IMG/VR virus record: IMGVR_UViG_3300021197_001472
Span: 1-57,858 of that record
Length of the DNA: 57,858 bases
Strand: one strand, 5' to 3'
Origin: a virus
Lineage: Duplodnaviria > Caudoviricetes
Position numbers and translations under genes: made by a program. Under the pieces are notes generated by a model. The model made no database searches, had not been told where the DNA came from, and saw only the letters and a list, made by a program, of their open reading frames with translations. Below, in pieces: positions 608 to 57,590 of this stretch. How positions within the stretch are numbered: the first letter of the stretch is position 1; the number at the start of each line of letters is the position of its first letter.

Positions 608-963
608 ATGTCGTCTCCAATTCTTGGTAAGTTTCTGCATTCAGCACGGCCTCGCTGTTCAACATCCTCGATGATCTGTTCGAGGGGTGTGACAGTGATG
701 TTGTCCCAACGCTTCTTGAATTTGTATGCGTCGCAATCCTCTTCGAGATACACATACCGCTCATCGTGGAAAGAGAAGCTGCTGAAATCACTAGGCTTCA
801 TACTCATGCGTTCAAGCATGTCCTTCGGTACACGTATCCATCCATGGCCTGAGTCGCTGATGAACAACAACTTGCTATGGTGTTTCATAATCCTAGCCTT
901 CATCACGTCGACGTAGCCAAGCTCGTCCATTAACTTTTCTGCGTATGTAAATTCGTTTGTCAT
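604..963 (-). CDS. Hypothetical phage protein (DSGHGW...YLEEDCD type)
   Basis: 119-aa ORF with AGGAAACACCAC-ATG start; motifs resemble small phage early proteins. Confidence 0.8.
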   Translation of the reverse strand: MTNEFTYAEKLMDELGYVDVMKARIMKHHSKLLFISDSGHGWIRVPKDMLERMSMKPSDFSSFSFHDERYVYLEEDCDAYKFKKRWDNITVTPLEQIIEDVEQRGRAECRNLPRIGDDI

Positions 964-982
964 GTGGTGTTTCCTTTCTAAG

Positions 983-1291
983 TTAAGCGTTTAATTTCTC
1001 TACCTCTTCGTCTGTCCAGCAGTCAGGACACACAACCTCAGTGGTCGGAAGCCCTTCCTTGCATGTGGCTTCGACTTCGAAGATTTCGTACTCAAGGGTG
1101 AGTTCTCCGCACCGCCAACAATCAATCATCTGGCACTCAGCACATTGGTATCCGTGGCGAAGCTGACCTTCTGCGAAGACTTCGGTTTCTGTGTCAGTCG
1201 TGCAAGAGATACGATCGACAAACTTGTCGCTACCCCACGACGTGTCTTCGCCGCAAAAGCAACAACGATCTCCGATCTCTAATGTTTTCAT
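983..1291 (-). CDS. Cys-rich (Zn-finger-like) hypothetical protein
   Basis: Four CxxC pairs; RBS AAAGGAAACACC-ATG. Confidence 0.75.
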   Translation of the reverse strand: MKTLEIGDRCCFCGEDTSWGSDKFVDRISCTTDTETEVFAEGQLRHGYQCAECQMIDCWRCGELTLEYEIFEVEATCKEGLPTTEVVCPDCWTDEEVEKLNA

Positions 1292-1303
1292 GGTGTTTCC
1301 TTT

Positions 1304-5689: not shown

Positions 5690-5959
5690 ATGGGCGAAGT
5701 TGTTAAGCTATCTGTTCACAGAAACACATTACAGAAACGTCAGCGCAAAATTACGCGCAACTCTTTAGTTGCTACTGCCAAGCAAGTGCAAAGACATAGC
5801 AAAATAGATGGCTACGCCCTTGTCACATTTACAATCACTGACCATGGAACGGTTGAACACAAAGTTCACTACGATGTCCCTACGGCATCTTTCGCTTACG
5901 TGCTTCCTCAGATGGCACAACAAGCTTTGTTCGCGTCAATCATAGGGGAGAATGATTAA
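5690..5959 (+). CDS. Hypothetical protein
   Basis: AAGGA RBS; coupled to next ORF. Confidence 0.7.
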   Translation: MGEVVKLSVHRNTLQKRQRKITRNSLVATAKQVQRHSKIDGYALVTFTITDHGTVEHKVHYDVPTASFAYVLPQMAQQALFASIIGEND

Positions 5960-7889: not shown

Positions 7890-9812
7890 ATGGTAGAGCT
7901 TACATCCCCCACTGCTTCAGCGCACATTCCAGACGACGGTATCATCGTTGATCTGTCTATGTATGCGAACAAGCTTATGCAGAACGAAGACATCTCGATG
8001 GATCTAACAGACGATCAGAACAATCGTCTCGTCGAGTACATTCGCGAAATAGAGCGCATGTCCTACTCCCGTATCTCCCGAAGATACGACCATTGGAAAC
8101 TAGCTGACCGTGCCCACGACGTTTATGTCCCTGCCGACGCTACTCGTTTCCGCGAGAAAGCAGTCATCGCTGACACCCGTGCCATAGCAGACACAGTCCT
8201 AACCTACTTGATGGCCGCACTAGGCGGTCGTAACCCAATGTTCCAACTCGAAGGTCTCAATCGTAAATCCCGTAAAGCCGCCGCTATTCTAGAACAGGTA
8301 CTCCATCAGCAAATGCGTAGAACCGCTGGCGAGGCACGACTATCCCAACATCTCCTTGACTGCATCCGTTATGGATTCGCACCCACCAAAGTAACATGGG
8401 ATGCCAAAACCAATTCTAACCAGATAGCAAACTTCGACCCACGTCGCGTCTTTCCCGACCCTCGCGTCCAGTGGGGAGATTGGGAAAACATGCAGTACTG
8501 TGTCTTCACAAGCACAGGCTCCTACGACGCCCTCGTCCAAACTGGCCTTTACCCTAAGCTAAAGTCCGACAAAAAATACCGCTACAAAATGACGTCCGAT
8601 CAACAGGCATGGGAAGCGCACAGGTGGCATCAAGAAGAAGGTCGCGGCCTGTCTATAGACCCGCTCCAACCCAACGAAAGATCAACTGGCCGTTCCAACT
8701 CTAGCTTCTTCTCCCTAGGAAACAGCCGCATAATCGACGAGGCATGGATCAAACTGGCGGGATACCAAGTTAATCTGCCAAACGTAGACTCAATCTGGAT
8801 GCTCGTCACAATAATCGACGAGAGCTTGGTCATACGCTGTCATCTCAACCCATATGGCCGACAGTTCCCCGTTGTTATTGGCGGTTTATTCCACGATAGC
8901 CACAAGACATACGCTCAATCACTGTATGATCTACTTCTACCCCTACATGACATAGCAACATGGCTCCTACGTTCCCGCATCGACAACGTACAGGCCGCAA
9001 TGAACAATCTCATCTTCGTTGACCCCACGAAAGTAGCCGTGAGCGACCTCATCGACCGCAATCCATGGGGCATAGTAAGGTCAATGCCTGGACAAAATCC
9101 AGGTGATGGAGTTTTCATTGCGAATGTTCCCGATATAACGCGAGGACATTGGCAAGACATAGGCGCGTTGTCTGAAATGAAACAACGCCTTTCAGCCGCG
9201 TCAGACGCGCAACAGGGAATGCCAAGCCAAGGCTCTGATAGGACGACCGCCTATGAAGTACAAAGATTAACCCAACTAGGATCACAACGCCTTGGCGTTT
9301 TATCCCGCATAATATCTGCCACATCCATCCGACCACTCGTGCGAATGTCCGTTGAAAACATCCAAGACAGTCTCGCATACAATGGCTCCATCCGAATGAG
9401 CGCAGATAACGCCAGCGAAACCCTAGCCCCCATGATCGAGGAAGGTTACCTAGACTACGACGCGGAAGCCCTACAAGGAGACATCGAGTATCTCGTCGTA
9501 GATGGCACCCTCCCGATCGAACCCAGCCGCTCCCCACAATCATGGCTGAACGCAGTCCAAATAGCATCCCAAGCTGGGCTTGGTATGGAACTCGACCTCA
9601 AGTCCATGACACTAGAAGCTGTTCGCTCGATGGGTATATCCGACATAGACAGGTTCCGAATCCCACCCGAACAACTACAGCGTGATGGCCCCTCTCCATC
9701 TCAGCAAATGGAACTCATGGAAAAAGCGAGAGGTGCGTCTGTCCAGCCCCAAGAACAGATCGACCGCGAACTTGAAAAGGGAAACATCATACCCATGCGA
9801 GGACAGCAATGA
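7890..9812 (+). CDS. Portal protein
   Basis: 640 aa directly after TerL; RTTAYEV motif typical of podoviral portals. Confidence 0.85.
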   Translation: MVELTSPTASAHIPDDGIIVDLSMYANKLMQNEDISMDLTDDQNNRLVEYIREIERMSYSRISRRYDHWKLADRAHDVYVPADATRFREKAVIADTRAIADTVLTYLMAALGGRNPMFQLEGLNRKSRKAAAILEQVLHQQMRRTAGEARLSQHLLDCIRYGFAPTKVTWDAKTNSNQIANFDPRRVFPDPRVQWGDWENMQYCVFTSTGSYDALVQTGLYPKLKSDKKYRYKMTSDQQAWEAHRWHQEEGRGLSIDPLQPNERSTGRSNSSFFSLGNSRIIDEAWIKLAGYQVNLPNVDSIWMLVTIIDESLVIRCHLNPYGRQFPVVIGGLFHDSHKTYAQSLYDLLLPLHDIATWLLRSRIDNVQAAMNNLIFVDPTKVAVSDLIDRNPWGIVRSMPGQNPGDGVFIANVPDITRGHWQDIGALSEMKQRLSAASDAQQGMPSQGSDRTTAYEVQRLTQLGSQRLGVLSRIISATSIRPLVRMSVENIQDSLAYNGSIRMSADNASETLAPMIEEGYLDYDAEALQGDIEYLVVDGTLPIEPSRSPQSWLNAVQIASQAGLGMELDLKSMTLEAVRSMGISDIDRFRIPPEQLQRDGPSPSQQMELMEKARGASVQPQEQIDRELEKGNIIPMRGQQ

Positions 9813-12182: not shown

Positions 12183-13489
12183 GTACGATAATGGACTTAG
12201 GGAAGCTACGCTTCTACTGGGCTGGCGATTATAACGCCGCTACAGAATACGAATCAAATGACATCGTACGATATGGTGGTAACGTCTTCGTATACATCTA
12301 TGGATTAAAGACCGCTGGTAACCCTCCCACTGACACAACCTATTGGGCCAAGATGGTTGAAGGCATGAGCTTCGATGGCGTCTGGGCATCTGGCACAACA
12401 TATCAAGCTGGAGACAGTGTCACCCACGGTGGTGTTGTCTACATAGCAAGTCAAACCACAACCGGAAACACGCCGCCAAATGCAACGTACTGGTCAGTAT
12501 TTGCAGACGGCATACAATGGGAAGACGCTTACAACAACGCGACGGGATACCAGAAGAACGACGTAGTTTCTTACGGCCCATCAATATACATTGCAAAACA
12601 AAACACAACTGGCAACCTGCCAACGGACACAACATACTGGGATAAATTCGTAGAAGGCATCAGCGCATCAGCCGTCTACAACGCGGCAACGGCTTACGTT
12701 CCAAATGACCTCGTTGCTTACGGGGGTAACATCTACCAAGCCATTGCAAACACAACTGGCAACTTACCCACCGATACATCCAAATGGTCGATCTTCGTGG
12801 CAAGCATTAATCCACGAGGAAATTGGGCAACCTCGACCGCCTACAATGTCAACGACCTCGTACAATACGGAGGTAACACCTATCGCGTTCTCATATCACA
12901 CTCATCTGGAACTTTCGCAACCGACTTAGCCGCCTCGAAGTGGCAGAAATTCACGGGAGGGATCGAATGGAAGGGCACATGGGCTACGTCAACTGCGTAC
13001 AAAGTAGGCGATATTTTTCTATACGACGTAAGTTCGTACATTGTCATTGCGGATCACACATCCGCGACATTCGCTGGGGATTCAGCAAATTACGAGCAAC
13101 TAGCAGTTGGTGCAAACATAGCCAATGTGGTGGGGCAAAGTGGTAAATTCCTTACAACCAACGGAACGATCACACAGTGGGCCGAAATCCCACCAGCAAC
13201 CGAACAGACGTGGCTAATCAAAACAGCGAACTACACTGCCGCTGTCTACGACAGAATTTTCGCCAACACGTCTGGCGGTGTATGGACACTCACACTCCCT
13301 GCATCTCCGACAATTGGACAGTGGGTGCAAGTCAACGATGTATCAGGCTCATGGGCAACAAACAATCTGACGATTGCGCGGAACAGTACCAACATGATGG
13401 GCGGGACAACCAATCTGGTGGGTAACGTCGCAAACTCGTCTTTTTACCTCGTGTTTTCGGACGCGACAAATGGCTGGAGAATAGTGTAA
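12179..13489 (+). CDS. Tail fibre protein with CBM5/12-like repeats
   Basis: About 6 repeats of (W/Y)xxxTxYxxnDxVxYGG...PT.TTYW; start ATG 12179 after GGAG. Confidence 0.8.
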   Translation: MSTIMDLGKLRFYWAGDYNAATEYESNDIVRYGGNVFVYIYGLKTAGNPPTDTTYWAKMVEGMSFDGVWASGTTYQAGDSVTHGGVVYIASQTTTGNTPPNATYWSVFADGIQWEDAYNNATGYQKNDVVSYGPSIYIAKQNTTGNLPTDTTYWDKFVEGISASAVYNAATAYVPNDLVAYGGNIYQAIANTTGNLPTDTSKWSIFVASINPRGNWATSTAYNVNDLVQYGGNTYRVLISHSSGTFATDLAASKWQKFTGGIEWKGTWATSTAYKVGDIFLYDVSSYIVIADHTSATFAGDSANYEQLAVGANIANVVGQSGKFLTTNGTITQWAEIPPATEQTWLIKTANYTAAVYDRIFANTSGGVWTLTLPASPTIGQWVQVNDVSGSWATNNLTIARNSTNMMGGTTNLVGNVANSSFYLVFSDATNGWRIV

Positions 13490-17141: not shown

Positions 17142-17162
17142 GGCCGAGAAAGGAAACACCAC

Positions 17163-18191
17163 ATGTCTATGGAACAAGAAGATCCAATCGCACGTATCGC
17201 CGCTAACCAATTAGGTCAGCCACCTGCACCACCTGCTCCACCTGCACCACCACCTTCTGCCCCCGACGCAGATACAGCTATGGACAAGGCTCAAACTGAT
17301 GCGGCCCCAACAACAGCCGACGATAAAACCAACATGGAGCCTATCCAAACATTTAAGGTAATGATGGACGGTGTCGAGCAAGAACTCAGTGCCCCTCAAA
17401 TAGAAGGGACATTCGCTCGATATAGAGATCTCAACCACAAACATGCACAACGAAAAGATATGGAACCATTCGATAACATGGTTTCTAAGCTTGCAGAGTC
17501 AGGTAAGCCTCGCGCTGAGATCATAGGAAACATGTTCGAGTTAATGAAAAAGGGCATGGATAAAAATACAACAATGGGTGATGACGGCGTTCCCTCTGCA
17601 CGTCCAGCCGAAGATTCGATGCCCTCCCAAGATATTGGCTCCGAAGATCCATACGAAAGATGGACGCGAGAAAATGATCTCTCCACTATGCCACCTGGAT
17701 TCAGAGAGCAACAAGCTCAAATAGCACAGATGTCCCAACAAATGGGAGCATTACAACAAATGCTTGCACCCATTCTACAAAATGCACAAGGAACCGCACA
17801 GAAGGCTGTTCAAAGTCAAGAGAAGGCAAATCAAATGAAAGTAGATGCTGCCAAAGATCGCATAGCCGCGAACATGGATCGTTTAGCCGACTCGCTTGGC
17901 CTTACAGAAGAAGACGCACCCATGTTCAACGAATACATAAAGGAACGCGGTTTTGGCTTCCCTGATTTTGAAGATCCCAACCTTCTTAAAATGGTATTGA
18001 CCGATTATACAAATGCCAAAAACGGCCCCGAAATGGATCGTCTCCGCGCAATCAACGAGCGAAGACAAGCCTATCAAGGAACGATGGTCGCTTCCCCTGC
18101 TGATGGAGCAAGCCCTGCCCCATCTGGTGCAGATGAAATGATTAGCCGTCTTGCCGACAAGCAGTTCAACAAAAATTCTGGGATGGCATAA
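17163..18191 (+). CDS. Capsid scaffolding protein
   Basis: Acidic Pro-rich N-terminus, FKVMMDGVEQEL motif, coiled-coil, upstream of MCP. Confidence 0.7.
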   Translation: MSMEQEDPIARIAANQLGQPPAPPAPPAPPPSAPDADTAMDKAQTDAAPTTADDKTNMEPIQTFKVMMDGVEQELSAPQIEGTFARYRDLNHKHAQRKDMEPFDNMVSKLAESGKPRAEIIGNMFELMKKGMDKNTTMGDDGVPSARPAEDSMPSQDIGSEDPYERWTRENDLSTMPPGFREQQAQIAQMSQQMGALQQMLAPILQNAQGTAQKAVQSQEKANQMKVDAAKDRIAANMDRLADSLGLTEEDAPMFNEYIKERGFGFPDFEDPNLLKMVLTDYTNAKNGPEMDRLRAINERRQAYQGTMVASPADGASPAPSGADEMISRLADKQFNKNSGMA

Positions 18192-45877: not shown

Positions 45878-46297
45878 TTATAGCTCCACCGTAACTTTGG
45901 CAGGGCCAGGGACTCTCGTAAGCGCAGGGTTAAGTATGTCCTGATCCTCTGGAGCTAACGTGTTGTACACAGATTTCTGTACCACCAACTTCTTCTCGAT
46001 GTAGTTGGGCAAGATGTCTGTATCATTGAGTTGTTGAGCTAAAAGTTTCTGATCCCATTTGAAATTCTCGCTCCGCTCAACGACAACTTTAGTTGAGCCT
46101 ACTTCTTTTTCAACCACACCAAAGTCGACAGGCATACCTGCTGTCACTATCGTCTTTAGCTTCTTTACTTTTTCTTTCAGTGTGGAAAGTTGTTCTTCAA
46201 AGACTGCTAGGCTTTCTGCATTCCTTAGCCATTCTAAATCTTCGTCACTTAGTCTTGTAGTTGTAGTCCATTTATTTGACATAACTCCGTCATTCAT
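45878..46297 (-). CDS. Hypothetical replication-module protein
   Basis: First gene of the leftward operon; AGGAAACACCAC-ATG start. Confidence 0.75.
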   Translation of the reverse strand: MNDGVMSNKWTTTTRLSDEDLEWLRNAESLAVFEEQLSTLKEKVKKLKTIVTAGMPVDFGVVEKEVGSTKVVVERSENFKWDQKLLAQQLNDTDILPNYIEKKLVVQKSVYNTLAPEDQDILNPALTRVPGPAKVTVEL

Positions 46298-46435
46298 GTG
46301 GTGTTTCCTTTTCTTTAAAAATAATGGTCGCTATGACCGACCCAACTAGTTTAGCATCTTTACATAACTTTTGTCTAGCATTATTTCTAAAGCAATGTTA
46401 CTAATGCTGTTCGAAAAAATAACGAAGAGAGAAGG
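46298..46435. promoter_or_regulatory. Divergent promoter/operator region
   Basis: AT-rich gap between divergent operons; three AGCAwnnTTwC repeats. Confidence 0.6.
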
Positions 46436-46681
46436 ATGAAGTTCGAAGTGGTAATAAATTACAAAGGTTTAATAGGTGATTGTGGCACCCCTCAAGAGGT
46501 AGCCGCCCAGCTTGGCTGTCACTACACGACAGTCTATCGATGGCTTAGAGGGCACCCGCCCAATGTCGATGTACTTTCCAAAATCATAACAAAATTCAAT
46601 TTAAATTTAGCTAACTATATAATAGATGGAGATTACATTAATGACTCAACCAATGAAGGATCAGCGAGAGAGACTGTATAA
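46436..46681 (+). CDS. Cro-like HTH regulator
   Basis: PQEVAAQLGCHYTTVYRWLRG helix-turn-helix. Confidence 0.75.
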   Translation: MKFEVVINYKGLIGDCGTPQEVAAQLGCHYTTVYRWLRGHPPNVDVLSKIITKFNLNLANYIIDGDYINDSTNEGSARETV

Positions 46682-48819: not shown

Positions 48820-49128
48820 TTGCCAGCACACCCGACCGTCCAAGCGGATGTCGAGTGGCTAAAATTTCATTTTAAAAAACAAGATATGACACTCAAGCAG
48901 ATGGCTGACCATGTTGGGTGTTGTGTGGATACGCTCAAGCGCATCCTCAATAGAGAAAATATCGCAATTTATACAGCCGCGAAGTACCAGACATCAAAGA
49001 CCAAGAACGCAGGTTCATGGACACGACCGTGCATGAAATGCGGAAGCAAAAAATCCAGACCACGTTGGCAGTACATCTGTACTCCATGTAAAGAAGCACA
49101 ACCAAGCGAAAGTCCATACGATTTCTAG
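48820..49128 (+). CDS. HTH plus Zn-ribbon protein, candidate transcription activator
   Basis: LKQMADHVGCCVDTLKRIL HTH; CMKC...CTPC; GGGAG RBS, TTG start. Confidence 0.7.
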   Translation: MPAHPTVQADVEWLKFHFKKQDMTLKQMADHVGCCVDTLKRILNRENIAIYTAAKYQTSKTKNAGSWTRPCMKCGSKKSRPRWQYICTPCKEAQPSESPYDF

Positions 49129-49567
49129 ACTCACTGGCCGTTCACTCAAGCGTAAAGGTGATGAGTTCGAACGTGAACTAGCACGTTGGTTTAACGACAA
49201 GCTGTTCGATGGTGAGGAAAGAGTATCGAGGGCACCCTTATCAGGTGGGGGATTCACCAGCCTAAACGCTGGCGGGGCAGACCTGCTTGGCCTACCCCTC
49301 TGTTTTGTGGAGGCGAAGCGTACCGAAAAATTAAATATTAGAGCTGCACTCAGACAAGCAATTGGCAATGTTTTCAAGAGGAAATCAACCGACGTTCCAA
49401 TTGTCATTACAAGAAAGAACAACGAGAACTTACCTGATTCAATCGTGGCCTTACGCCTATCCGATTTCACGGATCTTCTCACGATCGCCCTGCATGAGCA
49501 GGGCTATATTAATAATCGGGACGACCCTCTCCCTATTATAGAGGATGTTCTCCAGCATGATCGATGA
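49121..49567 (+). CDS. Hjc-type Holliday junction resolvase, probable ATT start
   Basis: KRKGDEFERELA...GADL...VEAKR motifs; the first two lie upstream of the first GTG (49307). Confidence 0.7.
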   Translation: MSRLTGRSLKRKGDEFERELARWFNDKLFDGEERVSRAPLSGGGFTSLNAGGADLLGLPLCFVEAKRTEKLNIRAALRQAIGNVFKRKSTDVPIVITRKNNENLPDSIVALRLSDFTDLLTIALHEQGYINNRDDPLPIIEDVLQHDR

Positions 49568-49802
49568 TGAACAACGCTTGCAAGAACTCCTCAACCGTGC
49601 CGCACATGATGGTGCGAAGGAAGCTCTCTCACGTATTGGCCTATCCGACGAGGAAGCGGGTCAAGACATTCACGACCTTCGAAAGCTGATCGATGATTGG
49701 CGTTCATGCAAGCGAACGGTATTCACAACAATCATCAAAGCCTCGACGATAGCAGTGCTTGGATTCATCAGTGCGGCAATCTGGTTCAAGCTCGGAGACT
49801 GA
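49557..49802 (+). CDS. Small protein with C-terminal TM helix (DUF6127-like)
   Basis: GAKEAL.RIGL.DE.A..DI.DLR.L motif. Confidence 0.65.
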   Translation: MIDDEQRLQELLNRAAHDGAKEALSRIGLSDEEAGQDIHDLRKLIDDWRSCKRTVFTTIIKASTIAVLGFISAAIWFKLGD

Positions 49803-50280
49803 GCGCAAGTGCAAGCATTGCGGTAAGACGTATCCCTCGCATCATTTCAGATGGGAGAAAAAGGCCAAGGCCATATATCAAACTCGTGAGTGTCACAAGT
49901 GTTATCGTAAACGCTTCAAGGGATACAACGATCGAGACCTGCACAATGGCGAGTACAGATTAAAGCGCGTCCTCCGTGATGCAAGGTGGAAGGCAAAGAA
50001 ACGTGGCTACGATTTCGCAATCACCTTACAGGATTTACTTGAGATGTTTGAAACTCAGGGGGGAAAGTGTGCGCTCACTGGCCATCACATGACACTGGGT
50101 TCATCCGATGATCTGGAGCTACGCCGCTACGCGGCTTCTCCCGATCGCATTGACAACGAACGGGGATACACCAATGACAATGTATGGCTCGTCTGCCAAC
50201 ATGCAAACGCAATGAAATCCTCAACCGATCTGGAAGACTTCATTGACTGGTGCAGGGCTGTCACTCGCACACAGAAGTGA
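49759..50280 (+). CDS. HNH-like endonuclease
   Basis: CALTG, SPDRIDN.RGY..DNVWLVC..AN.MK; start position uncertain. Confidence 0.75.
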   Translation: MDSSVRQSGSSSETERKCKHCGKTYPSHHFRWEKKAKAIYQTRECHKCYRKRFKGYNDRDLHNGEYRLKRVLRDARWKAKKRGYDFAITLQDLLEMFETQGGKCALTGHHMTLGSSDDLELRRYAASPDRIDNERGYTNDNVWLVCQHANAMKSSTDLEDFIDWCRAVTRTQK

Positions 50281-50340
50281 CATAAACTTTCGGGCACAAC
50301 TTGGTAAACTTCACTGTTAAAAAAAAATTACCACACAAAA

Positions 50341-50376
50341 AAACACCCTTGCTATTATCGCAAGAGTGTTTAGTTA
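50341..50376 (+). promoter_or_regulatory. Candidate sRNA promoter overlapping a 12-bp inverted repeat
   Basis: TTGCTA(50349)-N16-TAGTTA with upstream A-tracts; AAACACCCTTGC-N7-GCAAGAGTGTTT (could also be a minus-strand terminator). Confidence 0.45.
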
Positions 50377-50380
50377 TTGT

Positions 50381-50455
50381 GCCGTCAACTTGAAATGTGG
50401 TGTTTCCGTTGGCTTAGGACTAGTGAGTTGCGTTATGCGCTCCTAGTCCTTTCTC
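50381..50455 (+). ncRNA. Candidate trans-acting antisense small RNA
   Basis: Hairpin 1 displays UGUGGUG loop within AUGUGGUGUUUCC; hairpin 2 AGGACUAG/CUAGUCCU followed by UUCUC; seed complementary to the RBS-AUG motif of about 9 genes. Confidence 0.55.
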
Positions 50456-50659
50456 ACATTCGCTATCAATTAATTCATCAATCATTCGTGTCATAATGCG
50501 GTGCGCTTCATTCGATCCGATCAACCCGTGCTTTGTTCTTATCTTTGGGATCTGGGCTTTGACAGCTTTGATCATAACAACCTGGCTTTCTTTCCAGCCC
50601 TCGTATCTTTTCGCGGCAACATCATCTTCACTGATATTGTTTAACAAATCTTCATACAT
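50420..50659 (-). CDS. Hypothetical protein
   Basis: 79 aa; AAAGGA RBS. Confidence 0.65.
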   Translation of the reverse strand: MYEDLLNNISEDDVAAKRYEGWKESQVVMIKAVKAQIPKIRTKHGLIGSNEAHRIMTRMIDELIDSECEKGLGAHNATH

Positions 50660-50762
50660 CCAATTGGATTCCTTTCGGTTGGTTGAACTACCAACAAATA
50701 ATCCATATTTTTTTCAAGGTGAATAGTGTTAGAGTTTCATCAATGGTGAAAAAAATTCACCA

Positions 50763-51518
50763 CTAGATTGCAAACCTCACGTTGGTAGATCTGTCTGGCG
50801 TAATCATAGATCCTTCGCCCAGATCCATGAAGTATTCTATGAGTTCAGACGTATGATCAAACACCTCGTACCATTGTCGTAGCAAAGTTTGAGCGATCAT
50901 CGTGTCCTTGCGTTGGTTCCTAGCTACATATATGGCTTGCTTGACTAACTCATCTCTCGTAAACATCATACGACCAGCTACCCTGACATAGTACAGGAAT
51001 GGAGAATGATACGATCCGGTTTTCTTTTCTCTGTTATACAATCTAGACTTGATGCGGCTATCTGTTTTGTTTGCCAACTGTTTTTCTATATTACGAGAGG
51101 TACAATCGGGCAGACCCAAACCGCTGATGCCCAAGCGTTCACCAGACAGATCCGTGCCTGTCCACAAGTAGTCCCTGTCCCTAGTAAAAATACAAGCATA
51201 CGTTCCTTCTAAGATAGCACACTCAACTACTCCCCACATACTGGCTGGGGTATTATCCCGCAGGGAAACCAATTTATTTTTCCGCGCAAAGAGAAGTCCT
51301 TGGGCCACACCCGCCAGCCAACTCATACGGTACATCCTTGTCATTTCTGGAACCATATGATTTGTGTAATAGGTCGCTTGATCTGGCAGACTACTCGCCC
51401 AGTACGCTCCCTCCCATGGACATTCCGTTGGCGAGAACGAATACCTCTCAGCCATAAGTTTTTCAGCCAACCGATTCGGCTCTGTTATATTTATCTCACT
51501 ACTACCTATAATAGTCAT
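50763..51518 (-). CDS. Hypothetical protein
   Basis: 251 aa; GAAGGG RBS. Confidence 0.7.
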   Translation of the reverse strand: MTIIGSSEINITEPNRLAEKLMAERYSFSPTECPWEGAYWASSLPDQATYYTNHMVPEMTRMYRMSWLAGVAQGLLFARKNKLVSLRDNTPASMWGVVECAILEGTYACIFTRDRDYLWTGTDLSGERLGISGLGLPDCTSRNIEKQLANKTDSRIKSRLYNREKKTGSYHSPFLYYVRVAGRMMFTRDELVKQAIYVARNQRKDTMIAQTLLRQWYEVFDHTSELIEYFMDLGEGSMITPDRSTNVRFAI

Positions 51519-51723
51519 AGCTTACCCTTCTGAATAATTTATAATATTTTTTTTTGAAAAAATGTAGAGGAACTAAAGTTGCTTAAACTGTCACAACGTT
51601 TGCCAACTACCCATCTATGATTGGGATGGAAGCTAGATAAGTTATTGTTTTCCTTTCTATTTTCGGGGTGATGAAGGGGCATAACTGTCACATGACAGCA
51701 TGACAATGACAGACGTGACATAA
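51519..51723. other. Probable attP/regulatory region
   Basis: Non-coding gap just downstream of int with clustered TGACA/TGTCA repeats. Confidence 0.4.
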
Positions 51724-52869
51724 CTATAAACTCTGCACTGCACTAGCCAAATCATCAGGATGTAACGAGGCATACCTCATCGTTGTCTGGATGTTCTGAT
51801 GTCCCATCAACCGTCTGATTGTATCTAGTTGATGTCCTTTAAATCGTAACCAACTGGCAAACGTATGACGCAAGTGATACAACGTCGTGCCCTCTGGCAA
51901 GTCAGCCAGTTCTCTGGCCTTCTGCCATGGGTGCTTACAGAAATGTGGCTTCTGACTTTGACCGTCCTTGCCTACGATTGTATACCCACCACCAAATTGA
52001 TTCTTAAAAACGAAGCCGTATCGATCATGCCCTGGTATCTCGTTCAACGTCTCGTAAACAAGCGGATGTATTGGCACACTTCGCTTACGAAGTTGCTTGG
52101 TTTTCCCCTTGTAATTTTTCAGAACTAAGCTGCTAGAAGTAAGGTCATTGCGAAGGAACACATCATCCCACTTGAGCCTAGCCAACTCCACTGGCCGTGC
52201 CCCTGTATAAACAAGACACACATAGATCGCCAGCTTGTTTGGCCATCTCTCTTTGATGATATCAAGCAGTCTAGTTACTTCATCTTGCGTAAGGAAAATA
52301 TCCTCAAGATCTGGCTCAGGTAAAGCAACCATAGTCGGTGCGCGATAATCACTGTTGCCACCATGCTCTCTCTCCCACCGCTCCACGTAATTACACATGG
52401 CCCGAAATATTCCCAAGTATCTATTCACGCTTGAGTCACTCAACGGTGTCCTTGCAATGCTACGCCAGTGGTCGAATACACGATCTACCTCTACCTTTGT
52501 CCTTGGCAAATCCCAGTTTAACAATCCCCGTGTAACCGTCTTCGCCATACTCGTGGTATTCCCACTGCAAGAAGGATCGTTGGTATACACATGGAGCATG
52601 TCTTTTACCTTCCAGTGATTCACCCTCGACCAATCACCAATCAAAACTGGCTTAGACTCACGAACACTCTTGCGTTCAACCCGTGTCAATTCCCTCAACT
52701 GATATGCCTTAGCCAACACGGGGTTGTCTAATTCAATCTCTCTCAACTTTCTAAGTAGTACTTCGCTGGCCGCATCCTCACACGTAAGACCAGTAGACTC
52801 CTGTATCTTTACGCCAAGGTACTCACCCCACAAGCTGTACCGCTTGCCTCTTTTCCGTAACTTTATCAT
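51724..52869 (-). CDS. int: Tyrosine recombinase/integrase
   Basis: TGAR, HLRH, MGH and TTMRY catalytic residues. Confidence 0.92.
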   Translation of the reverse strand: MIKLRKRGKRYSLWGEYLGVKIQESTGLTCEDAASEVLLRKLREIELDNPVLAKAYQLRELTRVERKSVRESKPVLIGDWSRVNHWKVKDMLHVYTNDPSCSGNTTSMAKTVTRGLLNWDLPRTKVEVDRVFDHWRSIARTPLSDSSVNRYLGIFRAMCNYVERWEREHGGNSDYRAPTMVALPEPDLEDIFLTQDEVTRLLDIIKERWPNKLAIYVCLVYTGARPVELARLKWDDVFLRNDLTSSSLVLKNYKGKTKQLRKRSVPIHPLVYETLNEIPGHDRYGFVFKNQFGGGYTIVGKDGQSQKPHFCKHPWQKARELADLPEGTTLYHLRHTFASWLRFKGHQLDTIRRLMGHQNIQTTMRYASLHPDDLASAVQSL

Positions 52870-52890
52870 GTGGTGTTTCCTTATTTTAAT

Positions 52891-53325
52891 CTACGTTGAA
52901 TATAAATCCTTATTGATTGCTCGATCCTCCGCACTCCAGCTTGTACTCCACGTTGGCTTCAGCCCACAGAACCGTTCGAACTCTACGTCTGTGTAACTAC
53001 CCATAGCTTCTGTATACATTCTGGAAGTCATCAATCGATTCCTAACCGTTATCCCTGTGCCTCTAATGATATGGTCTTGTGCCCCTCTTATGTGGCCCTT
53101 CACTGTACTTTCTGTACAGCCCAACCGACTGGCTATCTCACCATTGGAAGCCCCGCCCGTAAGCATCAGCATCACTGCATGTTGCTTGCGACTGAGACGT
53201 TCTATCCACTGGTTTGATTCTTGGCTGACGCTTGAGCCAGCGTTACCTCCACTGGCCATTCGTATCAACATATCGACTTGGGCTTCGAGCCTCCCAACTC
53301 TTTGCTCTAAGTCTTCGCTTATCAT
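52891..53325 (-). CDS. LuxR-type HTH regulator without receiver domain
   Basis: LSRKQHAVM..LTGG.SNGEIA.RLG.TESTVKGH. Confidence 0.8.
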   Translation of the reverse strand: MISEDLEQRVGRLEAQVDMLIRMASGGNAGSSVSQESNQWIERLSRKQHAVMLMLTGGASNGEIASRLGCTESTVKGHIRGAQDHIIRGTGITVRNRLMTSRMYTEAMGSYTDVEFERFCGLKPTWSTSWSAEDRAINKDLYST

Positions 53326-53360
53326 GTGGTGCCTCTTTTCTGTTAGTAATAATGCTAAAC

Positions 53361-53579
53361 TTATTTAGTGTCTATGCCAACTTCTGTCAACTTTCGACGT
53401 GCCCCGTTCGCAAACTGCTTACGCCACTTGGGGTTATCAAGTGCCTGTGCTATGGCGTATCCAAGCATAGCCCCGTCAGTGTCACTGTCTGTATCGAACA
53501 CGGCACCTCCAAGGGTGCCGTTAGGACTCACTACAATGATTGCTCCCCCTTCCTCTAGTACAAGGGTGGCCTTACTCAT
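53361..53579 (-). CDS. Hypothetical protein
   Basis: GAGGAG RBS; coupled to the vWA gene. Confidence 0.65.
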   Translation of the reverse strand: MSKATLVLEEGGAIIVVSPNGTLGGAVFDTDSDTDGAMLGYAIAQALDNPKWRKQFANGARRKLTEVGIDTK

Positions 53580-55453
53580 GCTACTCTCCTCTCATTACTT
53601 GCCTTAAAGTTCTCACCCAACAACATCTTCGCAAAGTCATCCATCACCTTGCTGGCAAGAGCATCAACATCCTCCACGACGACGCTTCGATCACACCATC
53701 TCCCTATGTAGTCCTTACCAATGCCGACACCGACGACCTCGATGCCTTTATTCTGCATCGTTCTTATCGCTTGCCGTGCAGTGTCCTGACTGTTTGGCTC
53801 TCCATCGGTCACAAGGATAATGATCTTCCGATCCGCGTGTCGTTTCTCTAGCCTTGGGTATGTAAGATACAGGGCATCAGTCAGCGGAGTATCTGCATGG
53901 GATAGTGTCGTACCAGTGCCAAAGAAGGGAAGGCATTTGGCTACCCGCATACCGAATGGCTTGACTGCCAACACCTGTAATGGGTAGTAACGACTGAAGC
54001 CTTTCTCTTTAGCTTGAAGTTCCCTGCATTCATAACTGTTCCAGTTACCTCCCAAGAAAAGCAAAGCCTCATTGCCGACACCGATATTCTCCATCGTCTT
54101 AGACAATGCATAACCCATAGCCATGGCACTCTGCATTCTTGGGCCACTCATACTAGACGAACCATCAATGAGTATCTGCACATCAGTATCTATCTCTGGC
54201 GTACGTTGGCGTTTCCTAAACACGTCGGGATGCAGGTTGAATGCACGAACGAGACGACTTGGATCTAATCTCCCATCCATGTGTCCACTGTCCCAGCGTC
54301 GTGTCATCTGGGCAACAAACCCCCGCTGTATCTTGCGACGCATAACGCTTATCTTCCCACCGACCATCTTCGATAGCTCGACGTAGGGTTTCAGCCCATT
54401 CTTCAATCCATCCTTGCCAAACATTTGCTCGGCTGGCGTCTCTCCACTGTACAATGACCACTTCGATTCACCCCCTCCAAGACTCTGCCAGTTACCAGGT
54501 TCAAACACTCTGTCCCTGGTTGTAGTGTATGGCCTGTAAATCGCATCCCCTCTATTGCCGTGGCCATGTGGTGCATGGTCAGAGTCATGCCGTGTGATCT
54601 GCTCCATGTATGCCTTAGCCTCTATGTTGAAGGGCTTGGTTATATCAATCACTGGCTCGGCATCCCGATCAGCGAGAAGACGGTCGTTGTGCATGTCCTC
54701 CCACTCCTTGGCCTGTGTCCTCACCTTGATCTGGCATGGTGCCATGCCATCCTTGTCGTACTCACGCATGGCATCCGCAATCTTCTTAGCCACACTAATC
54801 GCCTCTTCCGGTGTCTCAACCGCTTCGATCCAGCTATAGTACTCCCGCAAATGATCCAGTTGATCTGGCTTGAATGACCGCCAACAATGCTTACTCCACT
54901 TACCTGCATACCCCTTGGCCTGACCACTGAACCACGTCATCGACTGCGGCCCCATGTAAGATATGGGCATCCGTACATATGAATCGTCCCTGAGTACTGC
55001 ATCATCATCGTCACTCGCAGTCACCTGTGTCGCAACGATAGCACTGAACGTATCCATATCTATCCGGTCATGGACATCGGATAGGAACTGCAATGATCCC
55101 TCGTACTCGGCAAGCCAGAGCTTCTCGATACGACAATCCTCTACAACATTCAGAAGGTATGCATACAACTCGTCTTTGTCTCTCCGTATCTCAGCAACCT
55201 TCTCGTGCAAACTCCTTGGCGTAAACATGATGTGGGCACACTCGTGGTGGTAGTACCCACGGCTGAAGCTGATCTCATCATCCGTAAGGTACAACTCGTG
55301 CCCGTATATGGCAGGTAGGAATATGACATTGCCATCTGTACAGGCTTCGTTACCCTCGAACTGTACGACAACATCCATCTTGCCGCCTAACATCTTGGCA
55401 CCCGTAACGATTGCTCGTTCGAATACCTCGGTAGTCATTGGTCTTCTATGCAT
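53576..55453 (-). CDS. CobT-like vWA-domain protein with N-terminal HExxH region
   Basis: HECAH, NVVEDCRIE, GRLD, ILIDGSSSM MIDAS, TP, VTDGEP. Confidence 0.85.
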   Translation of the reverse strand: MHRRPMTTEVFERAIVTGAKMLGGKMDVVVQFEGNEACTDGNVIFLPAIYGHELYLTDDEISFSRGYYHHECAHIMFTPRSLHEKVAEIRRDKDELYAYLLNVVEDCRIEKLWLAEYEGSLQFLSDVHDRIDMDTFSAIVATQVTASDDDDAVLRDDSYVRMPISYMGPQSMTWFSGQAKGYAGKWSKHCWRSFKPDQLDHLREYYSWIEAVETPEEAISVAKKIADAMREYDKDGMAPCQIKVRTQAKEWEDMHNDRLLADRDAEPVIDITKPFNIEAKAYMEQITRHDSDHAPHGHGNRGDAIYRPYTTTRDRVFEPGNWQSLGGGESKWSLYSGETPAEQMFGKDGLKNGLKPYVELSKMVGGKISVMRRKIQRGFVAQMTRRWDSGHMDGRLDPSRLVRAFNLHPDVFRKRQRTPEIDTDVQILIDGSSSMSGPRMQSAMAMGYALSKTMENIGVGNEALLFLGGNWNSYECRELQAKEKGFSRYYPLQVLAVKPFGMRVAKCLPFFGTGTTLSHADTPLTDALYLTYPRLEKRHADRKIIILVTDGEPNSQDTARQAIRTMQNKGIEVVGVGIGKDYIGRWCDRSVVVEDVDALASKVMDDFAKMLLGENFKASNERRVA

Positions 55454-55715
55454 GTGTGGTGTCTCCTTTTATTTCGACGAATTTTTTACGTTTCAATTTA
55501 ACAGGGTTAGTATGTGCGTCTTGCCAATAGAACTCTGGCCCACCATGAAATTTTTCTAAGGTATAATTGACCGTCGATCCATCACGATACGTCGCTTCAG
55601 AGGCTTCTATCTCTTTTGCTTTTTCAAGTGCATCTGCCCTGCTCGTAGCCATTACTTCACAATATGCAATGTGGTATACTGAACCGCTTACAAAATACTT
55701 CTTTTCCTTACTCAT
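55446..55715 (-). CDS. Hypothetical protein
   Basis: AGGAGACACCAC-ATG start. Confidence 0.7.
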   Translation of the reverse strand: MSKEKKYFVSGSVYHIAYCEVMATSRADALEKAKEIEASEATYRDGSTVNYTLEKFHGGPEFYWQDAHTNPVKLKRKKFVEIKGDTTHA

Positions 55716-55726
55716 GTGGTGTCTCC

Positions 55727-56111: not shown

Positions 56112-56347
56112 GTGTCGTTCACCTTTTTGATTGTTGAATAGATTTTCTTAGACAGCCTCAGCTTCACATCCCTGTAGGGATCGTGGATGTACACCCACTT
56201 CAATCCCGTCTTGGCCCATACCCAACGATGACCACTCCCAACCTTGGGGATCTCATCTTGCAGAACCATGTGTACAAACTGACAGCCCTTCCACTTGTTG
56301 CCCTTTGGTTTGGGCAACCTCTTCTCTCTCGACCACGCCATGATCAA
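56108..56347 (-). CDS. Hypothetical basic protein
   Basis: GGAGG RBS; coupled to the AAA gene. Confidence 0.65.
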   Translation of the reverse strand: MIMAWSREKRLPKPKGNKWKGCQFVHMVLQDEIPKVGSGHRWVWAKTGLKWVYIHDPYRDVKLRLSKKIYSTIKKVNDT

Positions 56348-57564
56348 CCTCCGAAGTGGGCGTCGATAGCCTCGTTCATCTTGGCTATGTCCTCATCAGA
56401 GGCACGACCGGATAGCGTGTACCCGATAGCCGATTTGATTGCTGCCTTATCCTGACCCCACACATCGATCATCTTGGCCACAGTCGTGAGACCACGAGGC
56501 GTGATGGTTGTGAGTACCTCGCCCTTGGTAAACGCATCCCGAATGTGGTTGGCTATACGAACGAGCTTGGTTGCAACACTATGCTTGCAGGTAGGAACCT
56601 TCGCAGTAATGAGCGCGACCTCTTCGTCATGGTCAAGATAACTGGCCTCAACCCAGACTTGAAACCTGTCGATGAAAGCTTGGCTCTGTATACGCGCACC
56701 CTGATAGCACCCATACTCATCACCCTGCCCCTTGGTATTGGCAGTCGCAACGATACGGAACATCGGATCAGCCTTGATTACTCGACCGCCATCCTCAGTG
56801 ATACGCAACGTGCGACCATCCTCAAGCACTGGCTGAAACGCATACAGGACATCCGATCGAGCGAAGTCGATCTCGTCTGCCTCTAATATGTATGGCCCCT
56901 GCATTGCTTGCGGAAGCACACCGTCCACAAACTTTGATGCAGTCACACCGTCTATACTTACGAGGGTGTCACGCCCAAGGAAATCGAGACGTGTCATCTC
57001 GCTGTCCATGTTGACTCGCAACGATGGTTGTTGTGTACGTGCAGAGATCTGTTGGATGAGCGTCGTTTTACCAGTGCCCGTATGACCGAAGTGATACACG
57101 GGAAGGTCATGCTCCAGTGCATACAGGATCGGACACAAGACATCTGGGTTGAACAGGTAGTCTGGATCAATGTCTGGTACATCTGGATGCACACCGTTTG
57201 GCCAAAAGAACTTGGTCACCATCTGCATCATAGGTGCTGGCAACGTAAGGTCACCCCTCCGCATGGCTTCCTTGGTTTCTTCTGGAGCAAACAACTCATA
57301 CGCTGGCACTCGCTCGGTCTGGTAATCGAAGTCGATACGGGAGTTCATCTTGGCAAGATCCTTGTCACTTGTCCTGATGATCTTGCCACCGTTGGCAAGC
57401 TGTTGTTGCAAGTCCTTGATCGTGCGCTGGTACTTCTCCTCGTCCATAATGTGGAGCCTCTCCTGACTTTGAAGAGCCGCCTGTACTTCCTGATCGGCAA
57501 CGCCCTGGCTAACCATTGGCTGGCCAGTTACTTCGGCTTGCAAGTTATCTAAGTCTGTACTCAT
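56344..57564 (-). CDS. CobS/MoxR-like AAA+ ATPase
   Basis: GHTGTGKT, ADEID, TANT.G.GD, AFIDRF; start MSTDLD after AGGAAACACCAC. Confidence 0.88.
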   Translation of the reverse strand: MSTDLDNLQAEVTGQPMVSQGVADQEVQAALQSQERLHIMDEEKYQRTIKDLQQQLANGGKIIRTSDKDLAKMNSRIDFDYQTERVPAYELFAPEETKEAMRRGDLTLPAPMMQMVTKFFWPNGVHPDVPDIDPDYLFNPDVLCPILYALEHDLPVYHFGHTGTGKTTLIQQISARTQQPSLRVNMDSEMTRLDFLGRDTLVSIDGVTASKFVDGVLPQAMQGPYILEADEIDFARSDVLYAFQPVLEDGRTLRITEDGGRVIKADPMFRIVATANTKGQGDEYGCYQGARIQSQAFIDRFQVWVEASYLDHDEEVALITAKVPTCKHSVATKLVRIANHIRDAFTKGEVLTTITPRGLTTVAKMIDVWGQDKAAIKSAIGYTLSGRASDEDIAKMNEAIDAHFGG

Positions 57565-57590
57565 GTGGTGTTTCCTTCTTTGGTTGAAAT

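Follow-up and report, generated by a model that had tools for sequence, protein, structure and literature searches.

A start-tag copy in a conserved hairpin between two converging operons of a marine phage: a possible anti-tag RNA

In the phage genome of virus record IMGVR_UViG_3300021197_001472, the 13-base sequence ATGTGGTGTTTCC is found at one gene start after another, and a single further copy, at positions 50395-50407, opens no gene at all. The question raised by this locus is what such an orphan copy of a start tag is kept for. The window, by which the whole stretch of DNA analysed is meant, is the entire record of 57,858 bases (47% G+C, estimated 100% complete). In a preliminary description, the orphan was taken for the seed of a discrete small RNA (sRNA) silencing the tagged genes in trans. 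The comparison of four phage lineages points to a conserved hairpin at the RNA level (H1), with the invariant 7-base core of this private start tag at its tip, in the stretch shared by the 3' ends of two converging operons.

The 13-mer is the most repeated word of the phage genome. It occurs in six exact copies, or in eight when up to two mismatches are allowed; shuffled sequences contained 2.12 on average, and none of 100 shuffles reached eight. Five of the exact copies read (A)GGAAACACCAC-ATG and start open reading frames (ORFs) at 963 (-), 17163 (+), 46297 (-), 52869 (-) and 57564 (-), in agreement with the preliminary description, whose variant starts were recovered as well: GGAGACACCACATG at 55715, GGAGACACCACACATG at 55453, AGAGGCACCACATG at 53325 and GGAAACACC-ATG at 1291. 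With these variants, nine genes of the window are tagged, including those of an integrase, a GerE/LuxR-family regulator, a CobS-like AAA+ protein, a CobT/vWA protein and a DUF7173 protein. The register with the ATG is fixed, the codon lying 0-2 bases past CACCAC at eight of the nine starts. The tag is also conserved at gene starts of relatives, with four copies in L034 (a metagenome contig with proteins 41-60% identical and four tagged starts, which also has the short variant GGAAACACC), four in locus L171, two in L172 and three in L173. Two more copies of GGAAACACCAC are located inside coding regions of L172 (minus strand, 5907-5917 and 2866-2876), in the sense of the gene and without ATG; they may be internal starts or chance matches.

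The sixth exact copy is the orphan, which indeed proved to be the only one away from a gene start. The copy and the hairpin formed around it are:

50395-50407, GGAAACACCACAT on the minus strand and AUGUGGUGUUUCC on the plus strand: orphan copy of the tag, running on into ATT, not ATG
50384-50413: hairpin H1, with outer stem GUCAAC/GUUGGC and inner stem GAAAU/GUUUC; its tip is (U)GUGGU(G) on the plus strand and CACCACA on the minus strand

The orphan is situated in a 139-base gap between a rightward HNH endonuclease gene, ending at 50280, and a leftward ORF of 79 amino acids, ending at 50420. It starts no ORF, as ATT comes next on the minus strand, and its likeness to the other copies ends exactly at 13 bases. 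The chance expectation of one extra exact 13-mer is 0.0017.

The lineage comparison rests on n = 4: the window, L171 (together with L170, identical to it in the gap), L172 and L173, the last two being fairly close to each other. L170/L171 and L172, which are syntenic, were found through the HNH homologue P0011, and L173 through an alignment of DUF6127. By tblastn, L171-L173 match ORFs of the window at 27-79% identity. The orphan is kept in the same convergent gap in all four lineages, although the gap sequences are otherwise unalignable, and when these gaps are aligned with MAFFT, the sole long invariant block is A.ATGTGGTGT.T.C. Its sequence is GGAAACACCACAT+T in three of the lineages (the window, L172 and L173); that of L171 is GTAGACACCACAT+C and lacks the GG of the Shine-Dalgarno (SD) core (GUAGAC). 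The orphan never precedes an ATG, since the base after CAT is T, T, T and C in the four lineages. The preliminary description had looked to relatives that keep the start motif for the hairpin copy, and it is present, hairpin included, in L171, L172 and L173. A search for hairpins with a TGTGGTG loop in 1.27 Mb of collected loci located the element only in L170-L173, besides five unrelated chance hairpins.

The structure of H1 follows the same pattern of a fixed tip on changing stems. The 7-base loop is invariant in the four lineages (UGUGGUG on the plus strand, CACCACA on the minus strand). Three lineages share the inner stem GAAA/UUUC, whereas L171 has GUAGA/UCUAC, which differs on both sides in two of five pairs; overall, 13 of 15 cells pair. 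The outer stems, GUCAAC/GUUGGC, AUCCU/AGGAU, CAUCCUUU/GAGGGAUG and UCA/UGA, represent three unrelated sequence solutions. On the plus strand of the window, H1 is the minimum-energy structure, as had been described, with 6 + 5 pairs, a GUGGU loop and -8.5 kcal/mol; measured against shuffled sequences, it is marginal (z -1.89, with 10 of 200 shuffles folding equally well). Folded as the minus strand, it reaches only -3.9 kcal/mol (z -0.06), and the fold is weak across the lineages (-3.9 to -5.5 kcal/mol).

Could the orphan be a relic, the functionless and decayed start of a cistron lost after rearrangement near a mobile HNH gene? Its place is that of the next cistron of the leftward operon, and the HNH content varies among relatives. 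However, 11-13 bases are kept in four lineages while every other base of the gap has diverged, the ATG is absent in all four, and the flanks have co-evolved to keep the hairpin. A decayed gene start is rejected because the orphan sits at the tip of a hairpin whose stems differ between lineages yet pair; this origin is very improbable and close to refuted. The orphan is a selected element, neither a chance match nor a relic.

Another explanation places the element at the level of DNA, as an asymmetric binding site of a phage DNA-binding protein comparable to the stoperators of phage L5, with the orphan as an additional site where the leftward operon ends. The 13-base motif is asymmetric and oriented with transcription, and regulators with a helix-turn-helix are encoded at 46436-46681 and 52891-53325. 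The strict ATG register at eight of nine starts and the SD content point to translation instead, and compensatory changes in a hairpin would be needless for a site in duplex DNA. L5 stoperators are, moreover, intergenic and independent of the start-codon register, whereas the register of the tag is fixed. We consider a DNA site improbable; selection on the element is at the level of single-stranded nucleic acid. The identity of the orphan with the start tags needs a reason, which is either mutual pairing or one common factor.

For mutual pairing, the possible targets of the orphan are the nine tagged starts:

52867-52880, minus strand: start tag GGAAACACCACATG of the integrase gene (51724-52869)
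53323-53336, minus strand: variant tag AGAGGCACCACATG of the GerE/LuxR-family regulator gene (52891-53325)
55451-55466, minus strand: variant tag GGAGACACCACACATG of the CobT/vWA gene (53576-55453)
55713-55726, minus strand: variant tag GGAGACACCACATG of an 89-aa ORF (55446-55715)
57562-57575, minus strand: start tag of the CobS-like AAA+ gene (56344-57564)
46295-46308, minus strand: start tag of the DUF7173 gene (45878-46297)
17152-17165, plus strand: start tag of a 342-aa ORF upstream of the capsid gene, the sole tagged rightward gene
961-974, minus strand: start tag of a 119-aa ORF (604-963)
1289-1300, minus strand: short variant GGAAACACC-ATG of a 102-aa ORF (983-1291)

For the 342-aa ORF no family match was obtained, and the label "scaffold" used for it in the preliminary description is unverified.

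The plus-strand sequence around UGUGGUG, the mirror of the tag, is complementary to the tag over 11-13 bases. Predicted duplexes of a plus-strand RNA, if one exists, with tagged starts reach -18.6 to -22.8 kcal/mol, with opening costs of 3.8 kcal/mol for the RNA and 1.3-4.1 kcal/mol for the targets. At tag position 4, a U in the mirror is accompanied by nine A and five G at the starts, and the C of the L171 mirror by no A and four G (Fisher one-sided p = 0.041). For the co-variation of loop seed and start motif that the preliminary description proposed to check, the data consist of this single A/G position with one changed lineage, which agrees with the wobble rule. Hairpin presentation is limited to the orphan, the real starts having no counterpart hairpin. 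Pairing is favoured because only the orphan is presented in a hairpin, as regulators usually are, and because the targets are open and the duplex is favourable. It is also favoured because the A/G pattern at position 4 follows the wobble rule, because the L173 orphan retains A although two of three starts carry G, and because the L171 orphan, lacking the GG of the SD core, is a poor mimic of a ribosome site.

Which strand is transcribed across the element depends on the features of the gap and of the genes bordering it:

49545-49802, plus strand: DUF6127 gene upstream of the HNH gene, with GGGACGAC at 49518-49525
49759-50280, plus strand: HNH endonuclease gene, last of the rightward operon (phrog_3322, 1.2e-25; phrog_3118 HNH)
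50341-50371, minus strand: T1, intrinsic terminator of the leftward operon, with a 12-bp stem and a 7-nt loop, then UUUUUUUGUGUGG
50416-50450: hairpin H2 (AGGACUAG...CUAGUCCU), overlapping the last codons and stop of the leftward 79-aa ORF
50420-50659, minus strand: 79-aa ORF, last gene of the leftward operon, with SD GAAAGGAA

The order of these features is the same in the four lineages: the HNH stop, 30-61 bases, an A-run with T1, 0-13 bases, H1, 1-3 bases and H2. T1 is a textbook minus-strand intrinsic terminator, with 12 pairs followed by TTTTTGTGTGG, a folding energy of -16.7 kcal/mol on the minus strand (z -7.19) against -12.4 kcal/mol on the plus strand, and a sole G-U pair that forms on the minus strand only. 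Equivalents on the minus strand of L171-L173 were called from RNAfold folds and direct reading and not by a terminator scan; their stems carry large or internal loops, and a simple scan of L171 and L172 left T1 unflagged. The U-tract is on the minus strand in all four lineages, and no U-run follows T1 on the plus strand of L171, L172 or L173. In the DNA run X11, three changes in the gap (50353, 50357 and 50359) all fall in the 7-base loop of T1 and leave the stem intact, which fits a hairpin under selection and not a promoter. The same run has one extra A in the A-run of T1. Neither X8 nor X11 has variants in 50381-50455, which is uninformative at a divergence of about 0.6%.

RNA of the minus strand certainly carries the sense copy, since T1 ends the leftward operon just past the orphan. 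Because no U-rich run follows T1 on the plus strand of L171, L172 and L173, transcription of DUF6127-HNH should continue rightward into H1 and H2, and to judge by this arrangement a plus-strand RNA across both hairpins should also exist. Compared with the usual ends of convergent operons, the layout is crossed: the leftward terminator stands beside the rightward gene, and the 3' untranslated regions (UTRs) overlap across H1 in the four lineages.

H2 had been described as a second hairpin followed by a short U-tract. The hairpin is strong on both strands (-18.8 and -16.9 kcal/mol, z about -5.9), and the U-tract is weak (UUUCUC). A structure over the stop of the small leftward ORF (79, 81, 73 and 73 aa) is present in the four lineages, with unrelated sequences. 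On the plus strand, region 50365-50460 folds as two hairpins with -27.9 kcal/mol (z -3.06), and H1 and H2 fold better on this strand in all eight lineage-by-hairpin comparisons. In a shuffle control for composition, this advantage was larger than in the shuffles only for H2 of L171 (0/300) and nearly so for H1 of the window (0.057). A strand call from G-U pairs, as previously made for H2, was dropped as mostly an effect of composition.

Our preference, a tentative one held at somewhat less than even confidence, is for a rightward 3' UTR that serves as an anti-tag RNA acting on the starts of int, LuxR, CobS/CobT and other genes. Rightward DUF6127-HNH transcripts would pass T1, whose U-tract is on the other strand, and continue through H1 and H2. 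Their 3' UTR would show UGUGGUG in the hairpin loop, which could pair with the unstructured CACCACA between the SD and the AUG of tagged mRNAs. The pairing might then extend over 11-13 bases, masking the SD together with the first two bases (AU) of the start codon. Activation of the rightward operon would in this way lower the translation of the integrase, the LuxR-family regulator, the CobS/CobT-like proteins, the DUF7173 protein and several small ORFs. The anti-tag RNA might work inside the long 3' UTR or after being cut out of it; a gene of its own, served by a sigma-70 promoter, is improbable. Transcription of the plus strand across H1, pairing in the cell and repression of translation are steps that we infer. 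A wider version, which we hold with more reserve, is an RNA-based regulon: a private tag would mark the integrase, LuxR-family, CobS/CobT-like and other early genes, the mirror in a hairpin loop at the 3' end of the converging replication/HNH operon would silence the set in trans when that operon is switched on, and the overlapping sense copy could act as a sponge, resulting in a toggle for lysis-lysogeny or timing.

A number of observations weigh against an anti-tag RNA. Taken by itself, H1 has marginal stability (z -1.2 to -1.9 across lineages), the compensatory count comes from three distinct sequences and is equalled by 58 of 500 shuffles, and the folding advantage of the plus strand is mostly explained by its G+T-rich composition (59-67%). 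The L171 mirror mismatches all four of its targets at tag position 2. After H2 on the plus strand, L172 and L173 have a good U-rich tail, the window a weak one and L171 none, which leaves the 3' end of the plus-strand RNA undefined. A scan for sigma-70-like sites in the gap of the window, L171 and L172 found none, which argues against a separate plus-strand RNA, and homologues of ProQ, Hfq and CsrA, sought among the phage proteins, were not found (an Hfq match of 13.6 bits within a 3164-aa protein is noise). The tagged gene at 17163 adjoins the capsid gene and resembles a late structural gene, which misfits a simple early shut-off. The orphan is in the orientation of the leftward genes, 12 nt past the last stop and 13 nt before T1. 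Finally, the RNA data consist of unstranded contigs of two metatranscriptome runs, which cover scattered parts of both operons; parts of the window free of such cover were not counted as evidence. The sole RNA-library contig over the site, X22 (50348-50568, 221 bases, depth 2.4, no differences), reaches from the 79-aa ORF through H2 and H1 to the T1 loop. Being unstranded, it fits a leftward mRNA ending at T1 at least equally, and DNA carry-over is possible, so that it attests no more than the presence of such a molecule in an RNA library.

Given the orientation of the orphan and its place upstream of the leftward terminator, a sense reading is as natural as an antisense one. The element would then belong to the leftward 3' UTR, between H2 and T1, as a decoy, sponge or operator for a factor that recognises the tag. 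Candidates for this factor are a translational regulator that binds RNA (RegA-like, from phage or host), a nuclease or a GU-rich sRNA of the host. In phage T4, the repressor RegA and the nuclease RegB each exemplify one phage factor controlling many early genes through their ribosome binding sites. RegA, a protein with no homologue identified here, is the model for this account. The effect of the sense copy would be to titrate the factor or to link it with stability or termination of the leftward operon. All 8-mer core copies but one (12429-12436) share the sense of the local genes, the T1 U-tract is on the minus strand throughout, and, with H1 weak on the minus strand, the tag stays accessible there, flanked by two strong hairpins. 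The sense reading is also compatible with the conservation and with the A/G match to the start tags, and X22 spans just the stretch from the ORF to the T1 loop. On the other hand, no candidate tag-binding protein was identified, ProQ, Hfq and CsrA included; the L171 orphan lacks the SD-core GG, the conserved hairpin of the orphan has no counterpart at real starts, and the A of the L173 orphan beside two of three starts with G fits wobble pairing better than mimicry. We consider such a sense-strand element the main rival, strong on account of orientation and T1, though rather on the unlikely side.

The form of the anti-tag RNA originally proposed, a separate sRNA gene of 75 nt on the plus strand with promoter TTGCTA-N16-TAGTTA and termination by H2, is much less probable, and we regard it as very unlikely. 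The promoter strings and the A-tracts are present as written, and 50365-50460 does fold as two hairpins on the plus strand. However, the -35 string and most of the spacer lie inside T1, and the -10 string TAGTTA agrees with TATAAT at two of six positions and lacks the final T. A relaxed promoter scan gave only 8-of-12 matches, beside the absence of sigma-70-like sites in the three lineages mentioned. The promoter stretch has diverged between lineages, H2 is followed by UUUCUC, and with a good U-rich tail in only two of four lineages a discrete 75-nt RNA is unsupported. Of the trans-acting RNA originally proposed, the conserved, hairpin-borne mirror and its favourable predicted pairing are supported; a promoter of its own and a discrete transcript are not. 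GGGACGAC was likewise dropped as a promoter of a plus-strand RNA in the gap, its nearest exact copy being at 49518.

A further use of the tag on the minus strand would be an attenuator of the leader-peptide type, in which a weak AUU/AUC start opens a mini-ORF and the ribosome modulates T1. The tag is followed by AUU, AUU, AUU and AUC in the four lineages, and the mini-ORFs of L171 and L172 end in or at T1. These mini-ORFs are not conserved, however, with 3, 6, 8 and 2 codons and stops 11 nt before, inside, next to and 21 nt before T1, and the mechanism is extremely improbable.

Tags of a comparable kind have been described in mycobacteriophages. The start-associated sequences (SAS) of Cluster K mycobacteriophages have the consensus GGGATAGGAGCCC, and in the accessible text of the original paper the authors leave open whether RNA or protein binds them (Pope et al. 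2011, PMC3203893). According to the part of a 2025 paper that was available, their function was still untested (PMC12699233). As far as these sources go, SAS and the present tag are alike in being 13-base and asymmetric, with an SD core within a few bases of a start codon that is mostly ATG, and in marking mostly non-structural genes of unrelated families with conservation among related phages. Like SAS, the tag is a motif at many unrelated gene starts, kept in related phages on partly different genes. They differ in sequence (GGGATAGGAGCCC versus GGAAACACCACAT), in host phylum and in phage family, again going by the available text. No ESAS-type inverted repeats were seen here. The tag's orphan is presented by a hairpin with compensatory changes, a feature not found described for SAS in the accessible portion of PMC3203893. 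Since the sequences differ, the tag is an analogue of SAS and not a member.

In bacteria, host-encoded sRNAs of the GcvB type use a G/U-rich seed on C/A-rich elements at many ribosome binding sites, depend on Hfq and have degenerate targets. The remark in the preliminary description that no account of such a multi-target architecture was known is thus too strong in general terms. What sets the present targets apart from those of GcvB is a private tag that hardly varies, and the search for a chaperone gene in the phage was negative. In 3'-UTR-derived bacterial sRNAs, the regulator is the tail of an mRNA and not a separate gene. Among phage antisense RNAs, CI of P4 and sar of P22 expose a loop sequence that pairs at or near a ribosome binding site. 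The c4 RNA of P1 and P7 also blocks expression by pairing at or near a ribosome binding site, according to the accessible text of a review (PMC12197685). Each of c4, CI and sar serves one operon, with targets adjoining or overlapping its own gene, whereas about nine dispersed genes share the target of the present element. Our literature search returned no published phage RNA aimed at a shared start tag, and the available part of the 2025 phage sRNA review mentions none (PMC12197685).

SAS have been known since 2011 without a tested function, and the orphan described here gives such a tag a concrete and testable partner. If the anti-tag reading is true, one short phage RNA would co-ordinate the integrase, a LuxR-type regulator and auxiliary genes post-transcriptionally, and a single loop mutation could reprogramme the early genes of a temperate phage. 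An RNA regulon, if real, would offer a possible explanation for the SAS of mycobacteriophages. If instead the sense reading holds, the element points to a tag-binding factor.

Regarding the neighbouring genes, the 79-aa ORF is real, with homologues at 99, 80 and 65% identity, and no Pfam or PHROG family was assigned to it. In an alignment of three close homologues, the C-terminal 14 residues, which overlap H2, are the best conserved part. The small leftward ORFs of the four lineages (L171 10479-10724, L172 10472-10693, L173 6840-7061 and that of the window) have a common N-terminus, MYED(L/I)Y or IY(E/D)DIY, and little else in common, and each of them ends inside H2. Homologues of the HNH protein with 47-65% identity occupy the same place in L171-L173. 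In one relative, the HNH protein is 88% identical and the adjoining 79-aa ORF only 65%; for the relative with the 80% ORF (P0002), the list contained no HNH match. These differences suggest that the HNH gene is mobile within the phage group.

GGGACGAC, which stands just upstream of the DUF6127 gene, had been put forward as a candidate late-gene motif. It has 11 exact copies, all on the plus strand, and with up to one mismatch 53 matches against 34 expected, a number reached by none of 100 shuffles. The DUF6127-HNH operon may therefore be in the same expression class as the structural genes.

Near-identical DNA is contained in seawater metagenomes from several studies. The nearest named phage is Roseobacter phage CRP-810, with a protein identity of 47% for TerL and 43% for CobS and a shared gene order. 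According to the accessible text of its description, CRP-810 is the founder of a family of temperate marine phages, and its attP is placed at a tRNA-Thr gene beside the integrase (PMC11288001). In our copy of this genome (L003), a tRNA-Thr gene at 9328-9402 indeed adjoins the integrase. ARAGORN found no tRNA gene in the window. At gathering score, Rfam gave no match over the whole window, the phage C4 family included, and for 50200-50800 eight sub-threshold matches, all far under the cut-offs. With no tRNA gene and nothing but noise in Rfam at E up to 10, the gap was dropped as a tRNA-like or attP site. CRP-810 was screened for repeated k-mers only; the top ones are coding repeats of tail fibres, with no start motif.

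Relatives were sought by several routes. None came from distant blastn of 49000-53000 or from tblastn of P0002, both against phages, nor from related-locus searches of viral contigs with the 251-aa ORF, P0003, P0002 or the primase alone, nor from an alignment search of metagenome and genome contigs with the 79-aa ORF. Scans of viral contigs for the tag returned two stretches with an 18-mer and 23 with a 16-mer, all unrelated. The 16-mer scan of metagenome contigs gave at least 116 stretches, and among the matches listed only L034 is a relative. An alignment of the primase yielded 28 distant loci at 23-45% identity, none of them with an exact or repeated tag; L025 has a single match with two mismatches. 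L173, a phage-sized contig (60,643 bases) in synteny with the window, is binned as Gammaproteobacteria, which may be a binning artefact and is not taken as a host call. In the distant relative L031 (9738-9967), at least five direct copies and one inverted copy of AAAAGTCACAT are located just upstream of the primase match, resembling the iterons of an origin.

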